From the IMG/VR virus record IMGVR_UViG_3300032231_000021, positions 1 to 27,845 of that record: a stretch of 27,845 bases of DNA. One strand, given 5' to 3'. Below are positions 2,743-20,771 of the stretch, piece after piece (position 1 is the first letter of the stretch; every line of letters starts with the position of its first letter). A model generated the notes under the pieces. It was not told the DNA's origin. It was given only the letters and a program-made list of their open reading frames with translations, and ran no database searches. Made by a program: the position numbers and the translations under genes. Source of the DNA: a virus. Lineage: Duplodnaviria > Caudoviricetes.

Positions 2743-2854
2743 CTTTGTGGTAGACTGCTGCGAGGACTGGGACAACGAAGACGTGGCCCTGACCATCGCA
2801 ACGCATCAAGTCTGGTTTGGGGAGATCTTACGTGGAGACCTTGACGACGAGTGA
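2627..2854 (+). CDS. Hypothetical protein (75 aa, acidic C-terminus)
   Basis: AAGGA upstream of ATG 2627; fills the space up to the primase; overlaps the previous ORF by about 115 nt. Confidence 0.6.
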   Translation: MAQITRHPSSKRNAKMLLLELLENPPAKLSVTYRSQTGDFVVDCCEDWDNEDVALTIATHQVWFGEILRGDLDDE

Positions 2855-4451
2855 GTACCAGTTCAAGGGCCCGTGCAGTTCGTGCGGGTCCTCGGACGCC
2901 AACGCACACTACGACGATGGGCACACCTACTGCTTCTCGTGTGGTGTCCACACCAGAGGAGATGGAGATGTGGTGGAAGTATCTAACCCTAAGCCAGCTG
3001 AAGGCACTGTATGTGTCACTGACTACCCGGCTTGGAAAGCTCGGGGCCTCTCTCAAGAGTCCTGCCGCAAGTGGGGACTGGGGGTTACTGAGCACCGAGG
3101 TGAGCGCTTTCGAACCTTCAAATACGGAGACGCATACAAGCTACGTCCGAAGGAAAAGAACGGCATCAAGTGGGTTGGGTCCGCGCCGGACCAGTTATAC
3201 GGTCAGAACCTCTGGGGGTCAGGTGGTAAGATGGTCATCGTCACGGAGGGTGAGATAGATGCCGTATCAGTGTCCCAAGTCCAAGGTCATAAGTGGCCTG
3301 TGGTCTCGGTGCCCAACGGGGCACAGGGCGCACGGAAGGCCCTACAGAAAAATCTGGAGTGGCTATCTACCTTCGAGACTGTGGTACTCTTCTTCGACGA
3401 CGACGGTCCAGGCCGCGAAGCGTGCGAAGCCAGCGCTCCGCTCTTCAAGCCCGGTAGTGTCAAGATCGCACACGTCCCTGGCTTCAAGGACGCGAATGAA
3501 GCTCTTGTCGCTGGTCAATCGAAAGAGATCGTCACCGCGATCTGGCAAGCCAAGCCCTGGAGGCCTGATGGCATCGTCGCTGGCTCGGACCTTTGGGAAA
3601 CCATTACCCGGCAAGAGACGATCCATTCGGTCGACTACCCCTGGAGAGCCCTCCAAGCGAAGACGCAAGGCCTTCGGAAGAGTGAGGTGGTTACGCTCAC
3701 TGCCGGGTCGGGTGTTGGTAAGTCGGCGGTGGTCCGTGAGTTGGCACATCACCTCCTGGTGAGGGGCGAGACCATCGGAATGATGATGTTCGAGGAGACC
3801 GTCAAGCGTACGGCGCTCGGGCTCATCGGCGTTGAACTAAATAGGAGTCATCATGAAACTGACCTTAGAGCACTGGCCGATTTCGAGGGCGCTTATGCTG
3901 CTACTCTTGGGACTGGGCGCTGCTTCCTGTACGATCATTTTGGCAGTACTGGCTTTGATAATGTACTTGATCGGGCAAGATACATGGCTAACGCTCTTGG
4001 CTGTGGCTATCTCTTTCTCGATCACCTGTCTATCCTGGTTTCTGGCATGGCTGACGGAGACGAGCGAAGGCTAATCGACAACGCTATGACGTCTATCAAG
4101 ACGCTGGCCATGGAAACAAACATGGGGATAGTCCTCGTGTCACACCTAAGGAGACCATCCAATGGTAACTCTCATGAAGAAGGCGCAACAACTAGCCTAT
4201 CTCAGCTTCGCGGTTCTCATGCTATCGCTCAGCTCAGCGACATGGTTGTGGGTCTGGAACGAGATCAGCAAGATGTAAACAACCCCGACCTCACCACGCT
4301 CCGGGTGCTCAAAAACCGATGGACTGGCGAGACGGGCCTAGCAGGATACCTACACTATGACAGATACACCGGAAGACTCCGGGAAGTCGATGGTCCGAGT
4401 GCCGGACCTAGCGGTCGACCCTTCGAAGGTAGTGACTCCGAAATATTCTAA
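2841..4451 (+). CDS. T7 gp4-like DNA primase-helicase
   Basis: Zinc ribbon CSSC...CFSC, TOPRIM motifs VTEGEIDA and FFDDD, Walker A AGSGVGKS, LDHL, LRGS and VLKNR SF4 helicase motifs. Start uncertain (TTG 2841 after GGAG, or 2817). Confidence 0.96.
   Translation: MTTSEYQFKGPCSSCGSSDANAHYDDGHTYCFSCGVHTRGDGDVVEVSNPKPAEGTVCVTDYPAWKARGLSQESCRKWGLGVTEHRGERFRTFKYGDAYKLRPKEKNGIKWVGSAPDQLYGQNLWGSGGKMVIVTEGEIDAVSVSQVQGHKWPVVSVPNGAQGARKALQKNLEWLSTFETVVLFFDDDGPGREACEASAPLFKPGSVKIAHVPGFKDANEALVAGQSKEIVTAIWQAKPWRPDGIVAGSDLWETITRQETIHSVDYPWRALQAKTQGLRKSEVVTLTAGSGVGKSAVVRELAHHLLVRGETIGMMMFEETVKRTALGLIGVELNRSHHETDLRALADFEGAYAATLGTGRCFLYDHFGSTGFDNVLDRARYMANALGCGYLFLDHLSILVSGMADGDERRLIDNAMTSIKTLAMETNMGIVLVSHLRRPSNGNSHEEGATTSLSQLRGSHAIAQLSDMVVGLERDQQDVNNPDLTTLRVLKNRWTGETGLAGYLHYDRYTGRLREVDGPSAGPSGRPFEGSDSEIF
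2968..3258 (+). CDS. Candidate overprinted ORF in the primase (+1 frame, position comparable to T7 gene 4.1)
   Basis: SD GAGGAG 2956-2961, ATG 2968, MWWKYLTLSQLKALYVSLTTRLGKLG...; local A/T-ending codons in the host frame. Confidence 0.4.
   Translation: MWWKYLTLSQLKALYVSLTTRLGKLGASLKSPAASGDWGLLSTEVSAFEPSNTETHTSYVRRKRTASSGLGPRRTSYTVRTSGGQVVRWSSSRRVR
3853..4074 (+). CDS. Overprinted two-TM membrane protein (73 aa, +1 frame inside the helicase)
   Basis: SD AGGAG 3843-3847, ATG 3853, two hydrophobic helices; helicase codons become strongly T-ending over this span. Confidence 0.65.
   Translation: MKLTLEHWPISRALMLLLLGLGAASCTIILAVLALIMYLIGQDTWLTLLAVAISFSITCLSWFLAWLTETSEG
4162..4278 (+). CDS. Overprinted single-TM micro-protein (38 aa, +1 frame inside the helicase)
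   Basis: SD TAAGGAG 4147-4153, ATG 4162; MVTLMKKAQQLAYLSFAVLMLSLSSATWLWVWNEISKM, TAA 4276-4278. Confidence 0.55.
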   Translation: MVTLMKKAQQLAYLSFAVLMLSLSSATWLWVWNEISKM

Positions 4452-4602
4452 GGACTCGACAGTCATTACCGGGGTCGTCGAGGGCGTTCCGATCATCGGG
4501 GTACACTCTGAGGAGGAGGTCTTCGTTCTCCCGATCAGCTTGTTCCACCTGATGATGGAAGCCTACGTCGACGTGTACACAACAGAGGAGGCGTACCACT
4601 GA
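4432..4602 (+). CDS. Hypothetical protein overlapping the helicase 3' end
   Basis: Fills the gap between the helicase and the next ORF, with TGATG coupling at 4600-4604. Start is GTG 4432 or ATG 4357. Confidence 0.55.
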   Translation: MTPKYSKDSTVITGVVEGVPIIGVHSEEEVFVLPISLFHLMMEAYVDVYTTEEAYH

Positions 4603-4856
4603 TGGACGACGTATGGGACACACTTCAGAACGAGACGGACGTAGCTAAACTCATCGAGGTCTACGAGATGGGTCAGGACAAACTTCACATCATCAAGGAG
4701 CAGATCCGTGAAGGAGACCGAGAGCATAACAAAATCGTCTACTACCTCAAACTCATTAAAGCTCGCATTGTTGAACTCTCAGATCGAGTTCCTGACGGAG
4801 CAACTGAGGTACGAGAGGGAGACCCACAAGGAGGAGATCCAGAAGCTCAAGGATGA
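4602..4856 (+). CDS. Hypothetical protein (helical/coiled-coil)
   Basis: SD GAGGAGG before ATG 4602; typical codon usage in the 5' part. Confidence 0.7.
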   Translation: MDDVWDTLQNETDVAKLIEVYEMGQDKLHIIKEQIREGDREHNKIVYYLKLIKARIVELSDRVPDGATEVREGDPQGGDPEAQG

Positions 4857-4890
4857 GCTGAGGCACCTCAGGTGGAGCCATAGGCTATGA
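4708..4890 (+). CDS. Hypothetical coiled-coil protein (60 aa)
   Basis: SD AAGGAG 4695-4700, GTG 4708; the 3' half has genome-typical codons; its stop overlaps the next ATG (ATGA 4887-4890). Confidence 0.55.
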   Translation: MKETESITKSSTTSNSLKLALLNSQIEFLTEQLRYERETHKEEIQKLKDELRHLRWSHRL

Positions 4891-5066
4891 ACACCGAAGA
4901 CGATCTGATGAGGGCGTCAGCCCTCGTCTCCATGCTCGCGATCGTTGGTGACGTCGACGAGGTCCTGGACAGCCGTACGCTCTTCGGGCTCAACTTCAAC
5001 ACGTACGACCTGGACCAACTCCGGTTGGCCCTGGCGTTCATGCTAGTCTATAAGGACATGGAATGA
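4887..5066 (+). CDS. Hypothetical protein (59 aa, below the ORF-track cutoff)
   Basis: MNTEDDLMRASALVSMLAIVGDVDEVLDSRTLFGLNFNTYDLDQLRLALAFMLVYKDME; GGAG upstream and ATGA overlaps at both ends. Confidence 0.7.
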   Translation: MNTEDDLMRASALVSMLAIVGDVDEVLDSRTLFGLNFNTYDLDQLRLALAFMLVYKDME

Positions 5067-5341
5067 TGAGTGACAAAACCCAGCATTGTCCCGGCTGCAA
5101 GACCCGCCAGGACGAGATCGAAAGCCTACGCTACGCAGCCCACTCTGCGATCGACGATCGGAAGATGCTGCTGAAGGAAACGAAACGCCTGCTCATGGAG
5201 GTCGAGATCTACGAGAACGCCCTACGCAAGATCACCGAGTGCCCACACCCCATCCCAAGGGCTGACGGCATGGTGGATATGGATTGGAACCCTGCCCGCA
5301 TGGTGCAGATAGCCGAGGAGGCCCTGAAAGAATGGACTTAA
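5063..5341 (+). CDS. Hypothetical protein with N-terminal CxxC and coiled coil
   Basis: SD TAAGGA; HCPGCK motif; coupled to its neighbours. Confidence 0.75.
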   Translation: MMSDKTQHCPGCKTRQDEIESLRYAAHSAIDDRKMLLKETKRLLMEVEIYENALRKITECPHPIPRADGMVDMDWNPARMVQIAEEALKEWT

Positions 5342-7110
5342 TCTTCGACATCGAGACGAACGGACTGCTAGACAGCCTGGACCGGATACACTGTATCTCC
5401 GTCATCGACTTGGAAAACCCCTACAAGGTCCTCGACTTCGGACCGAAGGACATCGCCGAGGGGATCGAGTACATCATGAAGGCCGACACGTTGATCGGAC
5501 ACAACATCATCCGGTTCGACATCCCGGCCATCAAGAAAGTGTACCCCTCGTTTGACTTTAAGGGGACACTAGTGGATACGCTCGTGGCGGCTCGGGTCAT
5601 TTGGCCTGACGTCCGCGACCGCGACATGATCCTCCGCCAGCGGGACCCTGAGTTCCCTGGTAAGATGCTCGGGAAGCAAACCCTCGGTGCCTGGGGCCGA
5701 CGCCTCGGGGTCGCCAAGGGGGACTATGACGGACCGTGGGAGACCTGGAACCGGGAGATGCACAACTACTGCATCCAGGACGCCCGGGTCACCCTGACAC
5801 TCTACAACAAGATCCTCGCCAAACACCTCGACCCGCGTTGCTGGTACCTGGAGCACGAGGTATCCAAGATCCTATGGGAGCAAGAAACACATGGATTTGC
5901 ATTTGACGTTGACGCCGCTTCAGATCTATATGGCAGGCTATGTGGGAGGCGTGACGAGCTTAATACTGCTCTGGCAGGTCTGTTCCCTGATTGGGAAGTG
6001 CGTACGCCGTTTGTCCCCAAAGCGAACAACAAGAAGCTAGGGTATGAGAAGGGTGTCCCAACCGAGAAGGTCAAGGTCATCCAGTTCAACCCCAACAGCC
6101 GAGATCATATCGCGAACCGTCTTGTCGAGAAGTACGACTGGAAGCCGACGGAGTTCACGCCGGAGGGTAAGCCCCGGGTGGACGAGGTCGTTCTGGGTAA
6201 GCTCGACTATCCCGAGGCCAAGCTACTGGCCGAGTCTTTCCTCATCGCGAAGCGCATTGGTCAACTTGCTGAAGGCCAGAACGCTTGGCTGAGGATGGAG
6301 AAGGACGGGGTCATCCACGGCTCGGTCAACGGTAACGGCGCAGTAACAGGGAGGATGACACATGCGTACCCCAACATGGCCCAGGTTCCATCTACTCGTG
6401 CGCTTTATGGAGCTGAGTGTAGGAGTCTTTTTGTCGCTCGCCCTGGTCACCTTCTGGTTGGCTGTGACGCTGATGCTCTTGAGCTTCGCCTACTCGCCAG
6501 CTATATGGCCTACTTTGATGATGGGGCTTATGTAGATGTGGTCCTCAACGGCGATAAATCGAACGGCACGGACACTCATTCTCGAAACGCTGAGGCGCTC
6601 GGTTGTGATCGGGACACAGCTAAGACGTGGTTCTACGCCTTCATATACGGAGCTGGTAACAAGAAGCTGGGAAGCATCCTGGGAGGTAGTGCGAAAAGAG
6701 GAGCTGCTTCAAAGGCTGACTTCTTTAGATCACTGCCTGCACTCGGCAAACTTGTCGAGACAGTCAAGACTACAGCCACCCAAAGGGGACACCTCAAGGG
6801 ACTGGATGGTCGTGAGTTGCCCATCAGATCGCCGCACGCGGCGTTAAATACCCTGCTCCAGTCCGCTGGTGCAGTCGTAATGAAGCAGGCCCTGGTCATC
6901 CTCGACGAGGACATCAAGGCCTACAACGAACCGGCTCACTTCGTCGCGAATGTACATGACGAGTGGCAACTTGAAGTGGAGGAAGGTAGTGCAGAGCGAC
7001 TGGGACGAAGAGCAGTTGACGCTATTCGAAGAGCTGGTGACGAGCTTGGGCTTAGATGCCCTATGGACGCCCAGTATTCCGTCGGACGAACCTGGGCCGA
7101 CACCCATTGA
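5332..7110 (+). CDS. polA: T7 gp5-like family A DNA polymerase with 3'-5' exonuclease domain
   Basis: ExoI FDIETNG, ExoII GHNIIRFD, ExoIII YCIQD, TGR, motif A DADALELR, motif B RDTAKTWFYAFIYG, motif C VHDE; SD GAGGAGG before ATG 5332. Confidence 0.97.
   Translation: MDLIFDIETNGLLDSLDRIHCISVIDLENPYKVLDFGPKDIAEGIEYIMKADTLIGHNIIRFDIPAIKKVYPSFDFKGTLVDTLVAARVIWPDVRDRDMILRQRDPEFPGKMLGKQTLGAWGRRLGVAKGDYDGPWETWNREMHNYCIQDARVTLTLYNKILAKHLDPRCWYLEHEVSKILWEQETHGFAFDVDAASDLYGRLCGRRDELNTALAGLFPDWEVRTPFVPKANNKKLGYEKGVPTEKVKVIQFNPNSRDHIANRLVEKYDWKPTEFTPEGKPRVDEVVLGKLDYPEAKLLAESFLIAKRIGQLAEGQNAWLRMEKDGVIHGSVNGNGAVTGRMTHAYPNMAQVPSTRALYGAECRSLFVARPGHLLVGCDADALELRLLASYMAYFDDGAYVDVVLNGDKSNGTDTHSRNAEALGCDRDTAKTWFYAFIYGAGNKKLGSILGGSAKRGAASKADFFRSLPALGKLVETVKTTATQRGHLKGLDGRELPIRSPHAALNTLLQSAGAVVMKQALVILDEDIKAYNEPAHFVANVHDEWQLEVEEGSAERLGRRAVDAIRRAGDELGLRCPMDAQYSVGRTWADTH
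5891..6040 (+). CDS. Overprinted single-TM micro-protein (49 aa, +1 frame inside the polymerase)
   Basis: GGGAG 5876-5880, ATG 5891; MDLHLTLTPLQIYMAGYVGGVTSLILLWQVCSLIGKCVRRLSPKRTTRS; local T-ending codon shift in the polymerase frame. Confidence 0.5.
   Translation: MDLHLTLTPLQIYMAGYVGGVTSLILLWQVCSLIGKCVRRLSPKRTTRS
6362..6535 (+). CDS. Overprinted hydrophobic micro-protein (57 aa, +1 frame inside the polymerase)
   Basis: SD GGGAGGA 6349-6355, ATG 6362; MRTPTWPRFHLLVRFMELSVGVFLSLALVTFWLAVTLMLLSFAYSPAIWPTLMMGLM; strong T-ending codon shift in the polymerase frame. Confidence 0.6.
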   Translation: MRTPTWPRFHLLVRFMELSVGVFLSLALVTFWLAVTLMLLSFAYSPAIWPTLMMGLM

Positions 7111-7189
7111 GGAACAGATTGACTTCGACGAAATCTGGGCCGAAAAATTAAGGAATAAGTATGGCATCGCCAAGCCATTTGCTGATTGA
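6989..7189 (+). CDS. Small acidic protein overlapping the polymerase 3' end and exonuclease start
   Basis: SD GGAGG 6978-6982, GTG 6989; VQSDWDEEQLTLFEELVTSLGLDALW...; covers the otherwise empty 7111-7160 gap. The ORF track starts at 6950. Confidence 0.55.
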   Translation: MQSDWDEEQLTLFEELVTSLGLDALWTPSIPSDEPGPTPIEEQIDFDEIWAEKLRNKYGIAKPFAD

Positions 7190-8066
7190 TGGAGACATCC
7201 TTCTCTATCAGACCACCCAGTCTTGTCTCAATGAGGCGGACTGGGGGAACACCTATGTCACCTGTTGGATGGACCTCGGGGAACTCAAGTTCCTCATCAA
7301 CACCATCCTGAACCGCTGGATGGAGGAGCTCGATGCGACCAGTTACACGATCTGTCTTTCGGACTATGAACGGAACTTTAGGAAGGAACTTGATCATAGC
7401 TACAAGGAGCAGCGGGATGGATCAAAGAAACCCGTCGGCTACGCGCGGGCTTATGAGTGGATACAGGGAATACACCCGTGTCGAAAGGTGGAAACGCTGG
7501 AGGCAGACGATGTTATGGGCATCATGGCCACGAACGGAGAGACGGAAAACCCAATCGTGGTCAGCGACGACAAAGATCTGCGGCAAATCCCGGGACGACT
7601 TTACGTTCCACGTCGCAGGGAACTCCTTACCATCACGCCTGAAGATGGCTATCGGTACCACATGCACCAAACTCTGGTGGGCGATCGGGTCGATAACTAC
7701 CCGGGGTGCCCGGGGATCGGGGAAGTACGGGCTGCAAAGGCTCTCGACGATAAGCATGTGGAGGACCTCTGGCCTACCGTCGTGGGCTTATATACTAGAG
7801 CTAAACAGACTGCTGAAGACGCAGTGCATCAAGCGCGACTTGCAAAGATCCTTCAGCACACAGACTACGTAAAAAGAAAGGTAAAATTATGGGAGCCAAG
7901 TGTGAGTTCTGTGGTAGTCGAGACAAGGCGTGTTCCTCCTTCAGGGAGTACGCGCACTGCGACGAAGCCCTCTTCCACGCCAACATCGACTGGGACGAAG
8001 CCGTCGACTCCGAACTTCGATACTACCCCAATGAAGGCGGTCTCGAACCTGAGGTCAAGACGCTAG
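7161..8066 (+). CDS. T7 gp6-like 5'-3' exonuclease
   Basis: LLIDGDILLY, LEADDVMGI, SDDKDLRQIPG, GDRVDNYPGCPGIG (H3TH); SD TAAGGA. Confidence 0.93.
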   Translation: MASPSHLLIDGDILLYQTTQSCLNEADWGNTYVTCWMDLGELKFLINTILNRWMEELDATSYTICLSDYERNFRKELDHSYKEQRDGSKKPVGYARAYEWIQGIHPCRKVETLEADDVMGIMATNGETENPIVVSDDKDLRQIPGRLYVPRRRELLTITPEDGYRYHMHQTLVGDRVDNYPGCPGIGEVRAAKALDDKHVEDLWPTVVGLYTRAKQTAEDAVHQARLAKILQHTDYVKRKVKLWEPSVSSVVVETRRVPPSGSTRTATKPSSTPTSTGTKPSTPNFDTTPMKAVSNLRSRR

Positions 8067-12108: not shown

Positions 12109-12125
12109 ACCTAATGGAGAGCGAC

Positions 12126-13334: not shown

Positions 13335-13744
13335 TGGAAGACCTACTTAACAAGATTGTAGGACAGATCGGCGACCTGATACCCTCATGGGTACCTTGGG
13401 TTGCCGGGGGTTCTACCGTAGGCCTGATCGTGCTGGCAGTGCTGGCACCTTCGGTCCTCCAGATCGCAGCCAACTGGCTCTCGGCCCTGTCGCCCATCCT
13501 ACGGGGTGTCGCCTCAGGGATCGTAGAGTTTGTTAAAGCTCTGTGGTCTGGATTTCTCGATATGACCGATAACGGTCGTAGCTTGCTGTTTGTGGGGGCT
13601 GTGGCCCTTGCAGCCTACCTATGGGGGTACACCCACGGGGCAGGCTCAAGGACGCTCCTACCCCCCTTGAACAGCGTTCGTGAGGCTATTGTGCCGCTAC
13701 CTACCCCTAGACCTTCCAATTGGAAGGACTGGCTGGGCAGCTGA
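13334..13744 (+). CDS. Membrane protein with two TM segments (holin-like candidate)
   Basis: Hydrophobic stretches VGLIVLAVLAPSVLQI and LLFVGAVALAAYLWGY; TGATG coupling at both ends. Confidence 0.7.
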   Translation: MEDLLNKIVGQIGDLIPSWVPWVAGGSTVGLIVLAVLAPSVLQIAANWLSALSPILRGVASGIVEFVKALWSGFLDMTDNGRSLLFVGAVALAAYLWGYTHGAGSRTLLPPLNSVREAIVPLPTPRPSNWKDWLGS

Positions 13745-14277
13745 TGCACATTAACCACAGATTGAAGCTGGTCTTCTGCCGAGTGCCTAAGACAGCTTCC
13801 ACTAGCTTTATGCGAGCCATCGGCCACTGGGATCTAACCCCCCAGGTGGCTGCCGGTAAGCATACCCACGCGATGTTCCGTGAGATGACAGACAAGTTCA
13901 TCGAGGAGTATCGTGACTACCGGTGGGTCGGGATGGTGAGGAACCCCCACGATTGGGTCCCCTCGCTCTACTCCTGGATCCACAACAACCACCCCAGGAT
14001 GAAGCAGACCGTATTCGGAAGCACCGAGGTCCCGCATAACTGGGTGGAGTTCCTACAGGCGCTGAAGGCAACCCCGATGGACTGGCTGTCTGACCCAAGG
14101 GTCCAGGACCGCATCGAGGTCTTCCGCATGGAGGACATCCCTTTGATTGAGGCGTCATTTGACATTAAGATGCCCCATCAGAACCGCACGGCCAAACCCC
14201 GTGAGTTCAACCCAACTCTTCACGAAGATGCTCTCGTTCAACAGATATTTCACAGAGAGTTATCTTTTTACAAATGA
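13744..14277 (+). CDS. PAPS-dependent sulfotransferase family protein
   Basis: 5'-PSB loop LVFCRVPKTASTSF, 3'-PB motif MVRNPHDWVPSLYS, later RMED and HQNRT motifs. Confidence 0.8.
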   Translation: MHINHRLKLVFCRVPKTASTSFMRAIGHWDLTPQVAAGKHTHAMFREMTDKFIEEYRDYRWVGMVRNPHDWVPSLYSWIHNNHPRMKQTVFGSTEVPHNWVEFLQALKATPMDWLSDPRVQDRIEVFRMEDIPLIEASFDIKMPHQNRTAKPREFNPTLHEDALVQQIFHRELSFYK

Positions 14278-17781: not shown

Positions 17782-20771
17782 TGCCTAGAGTACTTGGGAA
17801 CATCCCAAACTTCATCAATGGCATCAGCCAACAACCTGCGGCCCTGAGGCTCCCGTCTCAGGCCCAGAGCATGACTAACTGTTACCCTACGGTGGCCAAG
17901 GGCCTGTCTAAGCGCCCTGCACTGGAGCATGTCACCAAGATCTCGAACTCCCAGGCCGACAACGCCTTCGTGCATCTGATCAACCGCGACGTCACCGAAA
18001 GGTATGTCGCCATAGTCGACTACTCGGACACCCAAAAGGTCCGGGTCTTTGACTTCACAGGTGCTGAGGCTACCGTGACCTTCACGGCTACCACGGCGTA
18101 TGTCCCCACGGTCCCGTCGACTAGTATGGCGGCCCTCACGGTGGCGGACTATACGTTCTTCGTGAACAAGTCGAAGGTCGTGGCTAAGGATGCTGGTACC
18201 GTTGCATCGCGGCCTTATGAGGCCCTAATCTCCTTCGGTACGGTCCAGCCTGGATCCGAGATCAATGTTATTGTGACAGAGGCCACCGTAGGGACCTCTA
18301 CGTACACCCTGGCCATTGGCGACACTGACCCCTCAGAGCTAGACACTAGCTACGCGGCAGGTCAGATCGTGGCCCGGATGCAAAGTGGTGCTGGTTCGCC
18401 AGCCACTGGTCCGGCCTTGGGTGCCAACTTCACTTCTCACAGCCTCACCGAGACTGCCGGGTCCGTTATCTACCTCGCCAACTCCACCAATGACTTCACG
18501 GTCACGGTGCGGGACGGCTCGAACGGCCTCGGGATCAAGGTGATCAAGGACAAGGTCCAGTACTTCGAGGATCTGCCTCGGGCAGGCGAAGAGGGCTTCG
18601 TGGTCCAGGTCGCTGGTGACCCCGTGACATCCTTCGGTTCCTACTGGGTGACCTTCGAGAATGCTGGTATCCCTGTCTGGAAAGAGAGCGCCCAACCGGG
18701 CATTGACAATCAACTTGACGGGGCGACCCTACCACACACCCTGGTCAATACCGGGGCTCTCGCCTTCACATGGGATGAGGCCACCTGGGATGACCTTGCA
18801 GTCGGAGACACAGACACCAATAGTTTCCCGAGCTTCATCGGGGAGACCATTAACGACATCTTCTTCACGGAGAGTCGCTTGGCCTTTCTGGCTGGTGAAA
18901 GTGTCATTATGTCACAAGCCGGGGAGTTCTTTAACTTCTTCCGTACGACGACAACTGCGCTTGTGGACGGGGACCCGATCGACGTAGGGACTAACCACAC
19001 CAAGGTTAGCATCTTGCGCCATGCGGTACCGTATCAGGAACAGCTGCTTCTGTTTAGTGATCAGACTCAGTTTCGCCTCACGAAGGGGGACCTCTTATCA
19101 CCATCTACTGTTGGTATCGACCCGATTACCGAGTTTGAAAGCTCTATCCAGGCGCGTCCAGCGGCTGTGGGGAACTTCATCTTCTTCGGTGTCGAGAAGA
19201 GCGACTATGCTTCCGTACGAGAGTACTACGTCGCTGATGACTCGCTGCGCAACGATGCTCGTGAGATCACCGGCCACGTACCTCGCTATCTACCAAGCGG
19301 TATCAAGCGTATCGCGGGCTCGTCGAACGAAGACGTGATCATCATGCAATCGTCAGGCAGCGCGGTTAACGAGCTGTTCGTCTACAAGTACTTCTGGTCG
19401 GGACAGAACAAAGTCCAGTCGGCCTGGGGTAAGTGGTCGTTCCCTGACGTTGACGCGATCCTCGGCTTCGACTTCATCAAGTCCACACTCTACGTCGTCA
19501 CCAAGCGTGGCGATGGGGTCCACCTGGAGAAGATGGAGCTTGACACCGGGTCAGAAGACGACTCGGGGACTAGCTACGACTACCACCTGGACCGCAAGAC
19601 GTTCTCGACTAATGCTGACGTAACCGGTACTTACTATGGAGAGAACCTTGACCATACAGCTTATACTTTCGCTGACATTGACTGGGATAATACTGTCGAG
19701 CCTGTATGTGTTGGCATCGCTGGAAACAGTGCGACTTACCCGGTTGGCTACAACGTCCCCTTCTTGCAGTTCACAGCAAATCTACTTACCAAGTCAGAGG
19801 CGCTAGATCACGCGGACTGGACGAAGACAGGCGCTGCTACCATTACGCAGACGACCCTGACGTCACCAACAAACACCGCCACGATGGACGAGATCACGTT
19901 CACCGCTGGTCCCACCGATGGTGTCCTACAGACCTACACTCCAGACGCTTCATCTATGGAGGTCGGCGACTCGTGGAACTATGCGTTCTACTACGAGCCT
20001 ACAGGGACTGCCGGGGTCTTCAAGACCAAGATCAGGTTCGCCACTGGGGGTACCCCGGAGGAGTCCGAGATCACGGTCGATACGTCTACCAATACGATCA
20101 CCGTAGGTCCGACCAACGGTGGTGTGGCTACCATCACACCGCTCAATGGAGGGTTCTACCGTGTCAACATCGGTAAGACGATCACTAACGCAAGCAATGC
20201 AGACGTTGAAGTCTACATTACGCAGGGTGCAAGCGGTACATTCCGCTGCTGGGGCCACTACCTTAACTCAGGCCTTACGGCTGGATACTACATCGGCACC
20301 GATGCGACCAACGAGAACGAGGCCCTTGTCTACGAAGGTGACTTGACTGCTGACGACTTCGCCTTTGGCATCCCCTACACGGCAGAGTATGTCGTGTCGG
20401 AGCTTGTCGCTAAGGCCCCGTCGAGTACTGGAGGCGGGGACCAACAAGGGGGCGGTACCGTCCCGATAACCGAAGCTCGAAACCAACTCTACTGGTTGAA
20501 CTTCAAGTACGACGATACAGGGTACTTCAAGGTCCAGGTAGACAATGTTGGGCGTGACGCGAACACCTACGTGTTCAACGGTCGCGAGTCGAGCTATGTC
20601 GACAACGAAGTAGGGGCGCTCCCGATCAAGAGCCGGGGGTCCTTCCGAGTTCCTCTTCTGGGACGATCAGATCGTATTACGGTCACGGTCACCTCGGATG
20701 ACATCCTTCCGTTCAACCTTATCAGTGCGGACTGGATGGCGAACCTACACATGAAGTTCAAGAGAGCATAA
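17781..20771 (+). CDS. Tail tubular protein B (gp12-like nozzle) with inserted domain
   Basis: IPNFINGISQQP, GLSKRP, VGDTDTNSFPSF, FFNFFRTT, DPIDV, EITGHVPRYLP, QSAWGKW; 996 aa from ATG 17781. Confidence 0.95.
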   Translation: MPRVLGNIPNFINGISQQPAALRLPSQAQSMTNCYPTVAKGLSKRPALEHVTKISNSQADNAFVHLINRDVTERYVAIVDYSDTQKVRVFDFTGAEATVTFTATTAYVPTVPSTSMAALTVADYTFFVNKSKVVAKDAGTVASRPYEALISFGTVQPGSEINVIVTEATVGTSTYTLAIGDTDPSELDTSYAAGQIVARMQSGAGSPATGPALGANFTSHSLTETAGSVIYLANSTNDFTVTVRDGSNGLGIKVIKDKVQYFEDLPRAGEEGFVVQVAGDPVTSFGSYWVTFENAGIPVWKESAQPGIDNQLDGATLPHTLVNTGALAFTWDEATWDDLAVGDTDTNSFPSFIGETINDIFFTESRLAFLAGESVIMSQAGEFFNFFRTTTTALVDGDPIDVGTNHTKVSILRHAVPYQEQLLLFSDQTQFRLTKGDLLSPSTVGIDPITEFESSIQARPAAVGNFIFFGVEKSDYASVREYYVADDSLRNDAREITGHVPRYLPSGIKRIAGSSNEDVIIMQSSGSAVNELFVYKYFWSGQNKVQSAWGKWSFPDVDAILGFDFIKSTLYVVTKRGDGVHLEKMELDTGSEDDSGTSYDYHLDRKTFSTNADVTGTYYGENLDHTAYTFADIDWDNTVEPVCVGIAGNSATYPVGYNVPFLQFTANLLTKSEALDHADWTKTGAATITQTTLTSPTNTATMDEITFTAGPTDGVLQTYTPDASSMEVGDSWNYAFYYEPTGTAGVFKTKIRFATGGTPEESEITVDTSTNTITVGPTNGGVATITPLNGGFYRVNIGKTITNASNADVEVYITQGASGTFRCWGHYLNSGLTAGYYIGTDATNENEALVYEGDLTADDFAFGIPYTAEYVVSELVAKAPSSTGGGDQQGGGTVPITEARNQLYWLNFKYDDTGYFKVQVDNVGRDANTYVFNGRESSYVDNEVGALPIKSRGSFRVPLLGRSDRITVTVTSDDILPFNLISADWMANLHMKFKRA
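19636..19806 (+). CDS. Candidate overprinted single-TM micro-protein (+1 frame in tail tubular B)
   Basis: MERTLTIQLILSLTLTGIILSSLYVLASLETVR...; dense T-ending codons in the host frame; alternative start TTG 19648 with GGAG 19638-19641. Confidence 0.4.
   Translation: MERTLTIQLILSLTLTGIILSSLYVLASLETVRLTRLATTSPSCSSQQIYLPSQRR

Follow-up and report, generated by a model that had tools for sequence, protein, structure and literature searches.

The stretch of DNA analyzed here (the window) comprises 27,845 bases, positions 1 to 27,845 of the linear virus record IMGVR_UViG_3300032231_000021, and was recognized by its gene order as a fragment of a T7-like phage. A ribonucleotide reductase gene is followed by genes for a primase/helicase (to 4451), a family A DNA polymerase (5332-7110), an exonuclease, the portal, the scaffold, an endolysin-like protein, the capsid and the tail. 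Several short open reading frames, named here after their first position, are nested inside the genes for helicase, polymerase and tail, shifted by +1 against the host frame (Table 1). A preliminary description of the sequence had listed seven of them and had interpreted patches of T-ending synonymous codons, raised locally against the C/G preference of the genome, as footprints of hidden genes with their own Shine-Dalgarno (SD) sequence and start, mostly coding for transmembrane (TM) peptides. All seven frames were present in their places, and all of them are in the +1 frame.

Table 1. Host genes and nested +1 frames of the window
Feature	Position	Strand	Characteristics
Primase/helicase (T7 gene 4 type), host frame	2850..4451	+	phrog_239, E 5.7e-168; open frame from 2817, exact start not fixed
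2968 frame, 96 amino acids, judged a shadow frame	2968..3258	+	43% S/T/R/P, neither T patch nor hydrophobic stretch
3853 frame, 73 amino acids with two hydrophobic stretches, likely a nested gene for a membrane protein	3853..4074	+	ATG, AGGAG SD that includes an AGG codon, locally open structure
4162 frame, 38 amino acids, one hydrophobic stretch, positional counterpart of the T7 gene 4.2 N-terminus	4162..4278	+	TAAGGAG SD from the rare codons CTA AGG AGA
4357 frame, 81 amino acids, likely gene, absent from the preliminary list	4357..4602	+	ATG, weak SD, locally very open structure
Family A DNA polymerase (T7 gene 5 type), host frame	5332..7110	+	phrog_17, E 4.9e-135; PF00476
5891 frame, 49 amino acids, single hydrophobic stretch then basic tail, likely conserved membrane protein gene	5891..6040	+	ATG, T patch, hydrophobic stretch kept in relatives
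6362 frame, 57 amino acids, strongly hydrophobic, likely a young nested gene at a hotspot seen across the family	6362..6535	+	ATG, GGAGG SD from GGG AGG
6989 frame, 66 amino acids, acidic, conserved gene	6989..7189	+	QLTLF 7013-7027, QIDF 7115-7126; overlaps polymerase end and exonuclease start
19636 frame, 56 amino acids, hydrophobic, in tail gene, doubtful	19636..19806	+	T patch real (0.50, codons 610-646), ATG without SD

Codons ending in T made up 0.43, 0.41, 0.36, 0.50 and 0.35 of the host codons under frames 3853, 4162, 5891, 6362 and 19636, respectively, compared with 0.15, 0.14 and 0.20 outside the frames in helicase, polymerase and tail gene. In absolute numbers, 32 third-position T were counted over 3853 (19.5 expected) and 29 over 6362 (15.2 expected), while 6989 with 10 (8.5 expected) showed almost no patch and 2968 with 20 (19.0 expected) none; for these two the proposed patches were not confirmed. 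Two-codon boxes ended in T in 14 of 25, 5 of 8, 9 of 15 and 11 of 16 cases inside 3853, 4162, 5891 and 6362, versus 12 of 61 and 20 of 121 outside. As the capsid gene uses T in only 13 of 94 two-codon boxes, the patches do not reflect the codon bias of highly expressed genes. Codons ending in A were down in two patches (0.12, 0.07) and modestly up in three (0.23, 0.18, 0.16); they were not consistently elevated, and the shift is therefore mainly one of T. The best 30-codon T peak exceeded synonymous shuffles in the polymerase (0 of 1000), the helicase (P 0.023) and the tail gene (P 0.022), and did not do so in 8 other genes. Best-fit T segments were located within, or at most 9 codons away from, the five hydrophobic frames with 20-codon flanks at or near expectation, in agreement with the coincidence of patch and frame described before. 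A promoter-like site or a repeat coinciding with the patches was not found. An SD sequence plus start alone was no evidence for a gene, since the combination is frequent among +1 frames of the window genome; it was present for 3853, 4162, 5891 and 6362 and incomplete for 19636. Five of the seven frames were hydrophobic, and the full description of patch, SD, start and hydrophobic product applied to four.

These features were compared with shuffled sequences. Frames were counted when they started with ATG, had an SD match of at least 4 bases, comprised at least 30 codons and reached a 19-residue hydropathy of at least 1.5, all of these thresholds being chosen in this analysis. Helicase and polymerase together contained 4 such frames, 9 other genes none. 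Gene-wide synonymous shuffling gave a mean of 0.058 frames (maximum 2 over 1000 shuffles). A local shuffle within 40-codon blocks, which keeps much of a patch, gave 1.19, with 4 never reached in 1000, and a junction-preserving shuffle, in which the base after each codon was kept, gave 0.36, with 4 never reached in 500. The excess persisted at 6 of 6 threshold settings. For the +2 frames zero were observed and zero expected. The 19-residue maxima of the nested frames on the Kyte-Doolittle (KD) scale were 1.6-2.5, a statement on hydropathy only. The shuffle null suggested along with the preliminary description consequently came out in favor of the nested frames (4 versus 0.06-1.2, with 0 of 500-1000 shuffles reaching 4). 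We are aware of the fact that this argument is partly circular, as T in third position mechanically yields hydrophobic residues and ATG codons. Why the patches exist is better answered by relatives.

Close relatives were not found among cultured phages or in IMG/VR, where all candidates were below 60% identity; the nearest cultured ones are Ralstonia, Rhizobium, Roseobacter and Pelagibacter phages, each <60% identical. Pattern scans identified five relatives of the same clade with 57-69% polymerase identity, four of which cover the 5891 region. In addition, defined zones were tested in distant relatives with the window left out (115-116 helicases, 154 non-redundant polymerases), where five control zones yielded 0, 0, 0, 1 and 1 cases. 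The conservation in related phages that had been named as a check was found for 5891. All four full-length clade relatives (L255, L276, L226, L260) kept the ATG at the same codon, the T patch (z 2.9-3.4) and a stretch of KD 1.75-2.14 followed by basic residues. Scanning position 5902 was the only place with a T excess >2.5 in all five full-length genes (z 2.7-3.4). Pooled over the four relatives, 49 T were found versus 22.8 expected over the hydrophobic codons 10-34, and 10 versus 12.3 before the start. Among the 154 polymerases 4 passed in the 5891 zone (0.2 expected), which were exclusively these clade relatives. Since the frames range from 44 to 151 amino acids in length, only the N-terminal 45 residues look constrained.

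The SD sequence of 6362 ranks in the strongest 1% of +1 ATGs, and the frame overlies well-conserved polymerase motifs. In the zone first defined for it (starts 6350-6440) 3 of 154 polymerases carried a comparable frame versus 0.5 expected, one of them not truly hydrophobic. A wider hotspot was found afterwards by a grid scan over the whole gene, with borders that are post hoc: the scan position 6412 gave 20 cases versus 1.8 expected, and the zone 6290-6540 was used by 36 of 154 polymerases versus 8.5 or 10.9 expected under two nulls. The strongest case was seen in eight GC-rich phages (L274, L211, L266, L218, L214, L258, L245, L251), a separate, well-supported clade about 40% identical to the window. 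At positions corresponding to 6317-6540 the hydrophobic stretch was present in 8 of 8, an ATG at one and the same codon in 7 of 8 and an SD built from AGG/AGA in 8 of 8, with a pooled T excess of z 12.7 and nested frames of 148-210 codons. This clade was spotted through the hydrophobic trait itself, of which start and SD are independent characters. In a marine clade, a different conserved start is used upstream. T7 gene 5 (L007) contains at the hotspot an unannotated 47-codon +1 frame with its ATG in the K-I-H-G codons and a hydrophobic end. ATG and hydrophobic stretch were present in 5 and absent in 4 of 9 parsed T7 relatives, with 3 more not parsed. Tested against its own null, the T7 frame gave P 0.25-0.30 for the hydrophobic stretch and 0.04 together with the ATG and is, taken alone, indistinguishable from chance; we consider it a lead, not a finding. 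A literature search, which covered few subscription papers and not the classic articles on the T7 sequence, provided no report of recurrent nested membrane frames in T7-like polymerases.

In the helicase, the 3853 zone was used by 13 of 116 distant relatives versus 2.2 expected and the 4162 zone by 5 of 115 versus 0.9. For 3853 two contigs of near relatives were available, one about 85% identical with 18 of 30 differences listed, the other 93% identical with 8 of 17 listed, and in both the start was outside the visible part. The listed differences of the former touched 16 host codons, all synonymously and without creating a +1 stop, with six third-position T lost and six gained; no stop was found among the 8 of 17 listed differences of the latter. 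We regard this comparison as weak support for a gene at 3853, and it points to no strong sequence constraint. For 4162, the second methionine at 4174 aligns with the start of T7 4.2 at the H-E-E-G codons of the helicase. The T7 4.2 family (phrog_5140) was its sole match in a PHROG search (E 0.033), and Pfam gave no match to PF17576 (DUF5480). The similarity may derive from the shared host frame. The acidic 4357 frame begins inside the helicase end and occupies the otherwise empty gap that ends at 4602, as the T7 4.2 tail does; relatives were looked for and none were found. Frame 2968 was rejected as a gene: besides lacking patch and hydrophobic stretch, it had an ATG at the matching codon in 9 of 18 relatives versus 8.5 expected, and with its S/T/R/P content it is judged a shadow frame, not the hidden gene proposed before. 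Near the position of T7 gene 4.1 (zone 2890-2990), the marine relatives L139, L115, L146 and L091 carry a hydrophobic +1 frame that the window lacks; 4 of 105 helicases did so versus 0.6 expected.

Frame 6989 spans the final 40 codons of the polymerase gene, the gap that follows and the start of the exonuclease gene, and 16 of its 66 residues are D or E. Its GTG start aligns with ATG in relatives, an exchange at one codon, and synonymous conservation in the clade peaks at this frame (z 9.1). A profile search yielded a family of 33 proteins, queries included, and the gene is therefore one that gene finders call. On the sequence evidence 6989 is a real gene, the best-supported of the hidden frames, and not a membrane protein. 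The earlier proposal of a hidden membrane gene thus held for the gene and its conservation in relatives and failed for its character and for its escape from standard gene callers.

The product contains a clamp-motif pattern (Q-aliphatic-x-L/M-F/L in a flexible acidic region): QLTLF forms residues 9-13 inside the polymerase overlap, and QIDF follows behind it. QLxLF has been described as the beta-clamp consensus of highest affinity (PMC11139829). It was found in 4 of 6 clade genes (null P 0.0005-0.0016 each), where a run of rare host codons is needed to encode it, and the clamp motif occurred in this polymerase zone in 5 of 152 cases versus 0.11 expected, and elsewhere in 0 versus 0.76. By the definitions of PMC11139829, 14 of 31 family members have a pentamer or hexamer, and the Q of the second motif is invariant in 29 aligned members. 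Whether the 6989 protein occupies the peptide pocket of the clamp with one or two motifs, thereby drawing the clamp from host replication, we judge to be an evenly balanced question. A predicted complex with two copies of the E. coli clamp (score 0.13, mark 0.34) speaks neither way. No other recognizable domain was detected for 6989 in Pfam, PHROG and ESM Atlas, a homologue of it had no match among cultured phages, and a literature search that covered few subscription papers gave no report of this clamp-motif family. In the phages L101, L120, L146, L089, L127, L124 and L143 a QLxLF +1 frame at the 3' end of the polymerase runs into the downstream protein. That protein resembles a homing-type endonuclease by eye, with the clamp-type motif overprinted onto its N-terminus.

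Taking the data together, the T-rich patches are likely traces of +1 genes overprinted on helicase and polymerase, which would encode four predicted small membrane proteins, with 6989 as an additional overprinted gene. Most of the five frames (3853, 4162, 5891, 6362, 6989) are probably translated and under selection. The idea of patches as footprints of overprinted genes survived three nulls and is supported by relatives, with 2968 dropped from the list and 19636 left doubtful. Conservation of frame, start and character held for 5891 and 6989, was partial for 3853 and 4162, and failed for 6362 (in its own clade), 2968 and 19636. The notion of one family of membrane micro-proteins had to be abandoned: the host sequence under each frame is unrelated and no Pfam or PHROG match is shared, as expected for separate births. 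Apart from the marginal match of 4162, searches of Pfam, PHROG, PDB sequences and ESM Atlas assigned none of the hidden frames to a usable family.

Several observations weigh against this interpretation. Two frames passed our own thresholds narrowly, with KD values of 1.60 and 1.63. For the helicase zone, the excess was smaller under a stricter null without start requirement (25 versus 14.2). The 3853 peptide varies freely in the relative of about 85% identity, where it gained two prolines and where synonymous change is not clearly suppressed; an open frame is expected there under neutrality with P 0.55, and retention of T gave P 0.047. The SD of 5891 sits in host codons prone to GAG/GGA anyway. 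At 6362, the nearest relative (69% identity) keeps the ATG and loses patch and hydrophobic stretch, and the remaining clade members are without the hydrophobic frame. The hotspot cases are not independent, as 15 strong cases correspond to only 8 changes on a FastTree tree. Strict QLxLF is present in only 13 of 31 non-fragment members of the 6989 family; the second motif is found in 28 of 31, mostly as the four-residue QLDF, one short of the consensus. Finally, T7 4.2 is dispensable and without a known role (10.1101/2024.10.10.617714).

If the frames are translated, rare host codons would form SD sites within the mRNA of the replication genes at which ribosomes initiate internally, and selection for hydrophobic, membrane-spanning residues would hold T at host third positions against the C/G preference. 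Few stretches of the enzymes may permit long stop-free hydrophobic +1 frames, and genes would have been born there repeatedly and independently. The hydrophobic peptides would be non-essential accessory proteins of the inner membrane made during DNA replication; their position in replication genes, their rapid turnover and the fact that T7 4.2 is dispensable suggest an accessory role in mid-infection. They might protect the infected cell by blocking membrane-acting defences or a second phage, a function that we favor over lysis, at well below even odds. The 6989 protein would act as a clamp decoy, as predicted from the motif only.

An alternative explanation, considered unlikely, is that the patches are kept by a constraint at the nucleic-acid level (weakly structured mRNA, slow codons where domains meet or a binding site) with the +1 frames as by-product. 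It would agree with the free drift of the 3853 peptide, with the 1.19 of 4 frames obtained by the local shuffle alone and with the mechanical effect of third-position T, which besides hydrophobic residues and ATG starts also gives fewer +1 stops. Such a constraint does not explain, however, that the shift concerns mainly T and not A+T, that the patches begin at or after the start and span the hydrophobic codons, or that a rare AGG/AGA SD is found upstream of the patch in the window as well as in 8 of 8 members of the other clade. Patch positions differ between clades, no promoter-like site or repeat accounts for them, and 6989 cannot be explained in this way.

A role of the hydrophobic peptides in lysis or its timing, comparable to that of phiX174 E and the leviviral single-gene lysis proteins (Sgls), appears improbable. 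The frames are placed in the replication module and not among late genes, the presence of a separate endolysin-like gene (near 12114) speaks against their being the sole lysis genes, and no family match to lysis proteins was obtained, although the architecture is the same as that of Sgls (PMC7693330) and E (PMC8227390). Of the three roles proposed in the preliminary description, superinfection exclusion, anti-defence and lysis timing, the last is the least likely given the replication-module position and the separate endolysin-like gene. It is still less probable that the patches were acquired as mosaic pieces by recombination with relatives of lower GC content, or that they are chance fluctuations. 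T7-like relatives with a G+C content at third positions of 0.3-0.5 often have hydrophobic +1 frames, the tail patch is located at an insertion edge, and the helicase and tail peaks alone reach only P ~0.02; against this, A-ending codons are not consistently raised, the 5891 patch is common to five phages at 57-69% identity, and a near relative retains 20 of 40 T. Ribosomal frameshifting into the +1 frames, by which a truncated helicase or polymerase would end in a membrane anchor or a clamp-motif tail, would fit the single shifted frame shared by all and, by inference, a clamp motif on a polymerase tail, and is very improbable, as every frame possesses a start and an SD of its own, in most cases preceded within a few codons by a stop, the 6989 start is conserved through the GTG/ATG exchange, and the shifts would remove conserved catalytic or C-terminal motifs.

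Overprinted genes remain the preferred explanation of the patches. Extending it beyond the window, we tentatively propose, at somewhat less than even confidence, that T7-like helicases and polymerases carry fixed hotspots for repeated births of +1 membrane micro-proteins, T7 gene 5 included, and that one clade has added a two-motif clamp decoy. If this were true, an unseen layer of host-control genes would exist in one of the best-studied phage groups. In case the frames are translated, annotated T7-like genomes, including recoded or refactored versions, miss several proteins inside essential enzymes, and in GC-rich phages such genes could be detected cheaply by a local excess of T in third positions. 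The repeated birth of genes at identical places in the enzymes would provide a natural series for de novo gene origin in double-stranded DNA phages. The 6989 family offers a testable phage peptide for the clamp protein pocket, a site unused by the characterized inhibitor Gp168, and the T7 gene 5 frame is directly testable in a laboratory phage.

The 19636 patch begins 9 codons upstream of the start, at the edge of a tail-protein insertion, and the single relative tested carries stops there. T patch and hydrophobic product speak for the claimed hidden gene, the missing SD and these stops against it. The insertion of about 190 residues (~19720-20300), seen relative to genome G001, has the patch at its left edge. 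In the exonuclease gene a 179-codon +1 frame (7333-7872) has several SD-ATG starts and is not hydrophobic; T-ending codons are also elevated in two-codon boxes of this gene (27 of 68). The exonuclease frame extends about 55 codons beyond the family match into the next gene (7800-8066) with an S/T/P-rich tail at the end. Between the lysis-like genes and the capsid gene, a gene at 13744-14277 gave a weak match to a sulfotransferase family (phrog_3347, E 0.001).

Among the closest known systems is T7 itself, whose genes 4.1 and 4.2 are both in the +1 frame relative to gene 4. T7 gp4.2 (PF17576, DUF5480; phrog_5140) shares with 4162 a hydrophobic N-terminus and a start that matches the second methionine of 4162. 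It differs in its length of 112 amino acids and in extending past the gene 4 end, whereas 4162 stops after 38 amino acids. T7 gene 5 has no annotated nested gene, and 3853, 5891, 6362 and 6989 are without an annotated T7 counterpart. In phiX174, gene E within gene D follows the same route from third-position T of the host frame to second-position T and a hydrophobic protein, and third-position T of gene D supplies E with leucines (PMC8227390); the phiX174 genome is T-rich throughout, while in the window T is raised locally. Leviviral Sgls are likewise small, unrelated frames with SD, start and TM stretch that were repeatedly born in the +1 frame of rep and cluster in hotspots, with 21 of 33 active Sgls in this frame (PMC7693330). 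The hydrophobic frames of the window share the architecture of Sgls and E (small TM-like protein, +1 embedded, with SD), as judged on hydropathy only. In contrast to the leviviruses, the phage of the window has double-stranded DNA and its own lysis genes, and Sgl hotspots are found in divergent parts of Rep, while 6362 lies over conserved motifs. The route from third-position T to hydrophobic +1 proteins has precedents in phiX174 E, the Sgls of leviviruses and T7 4.2. For 6989, MuC of phage Mu offers a parallel: it binds the clamp via two such motifs and is lethal on overproduction (PMC12867686), and 6989 has an N-terminal QLxLF plus a second similar motif; MuC differs in being a transcription activator. 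Gp168 of Twort (Gp240 of G1) is small like 6989 and blocks the DNA channel of the clamp, not the peptide pocket (PMC8565349). From both clamp proteins, MuC and Gp168, 6989 is set apart by being half overprinted on the polymerase.

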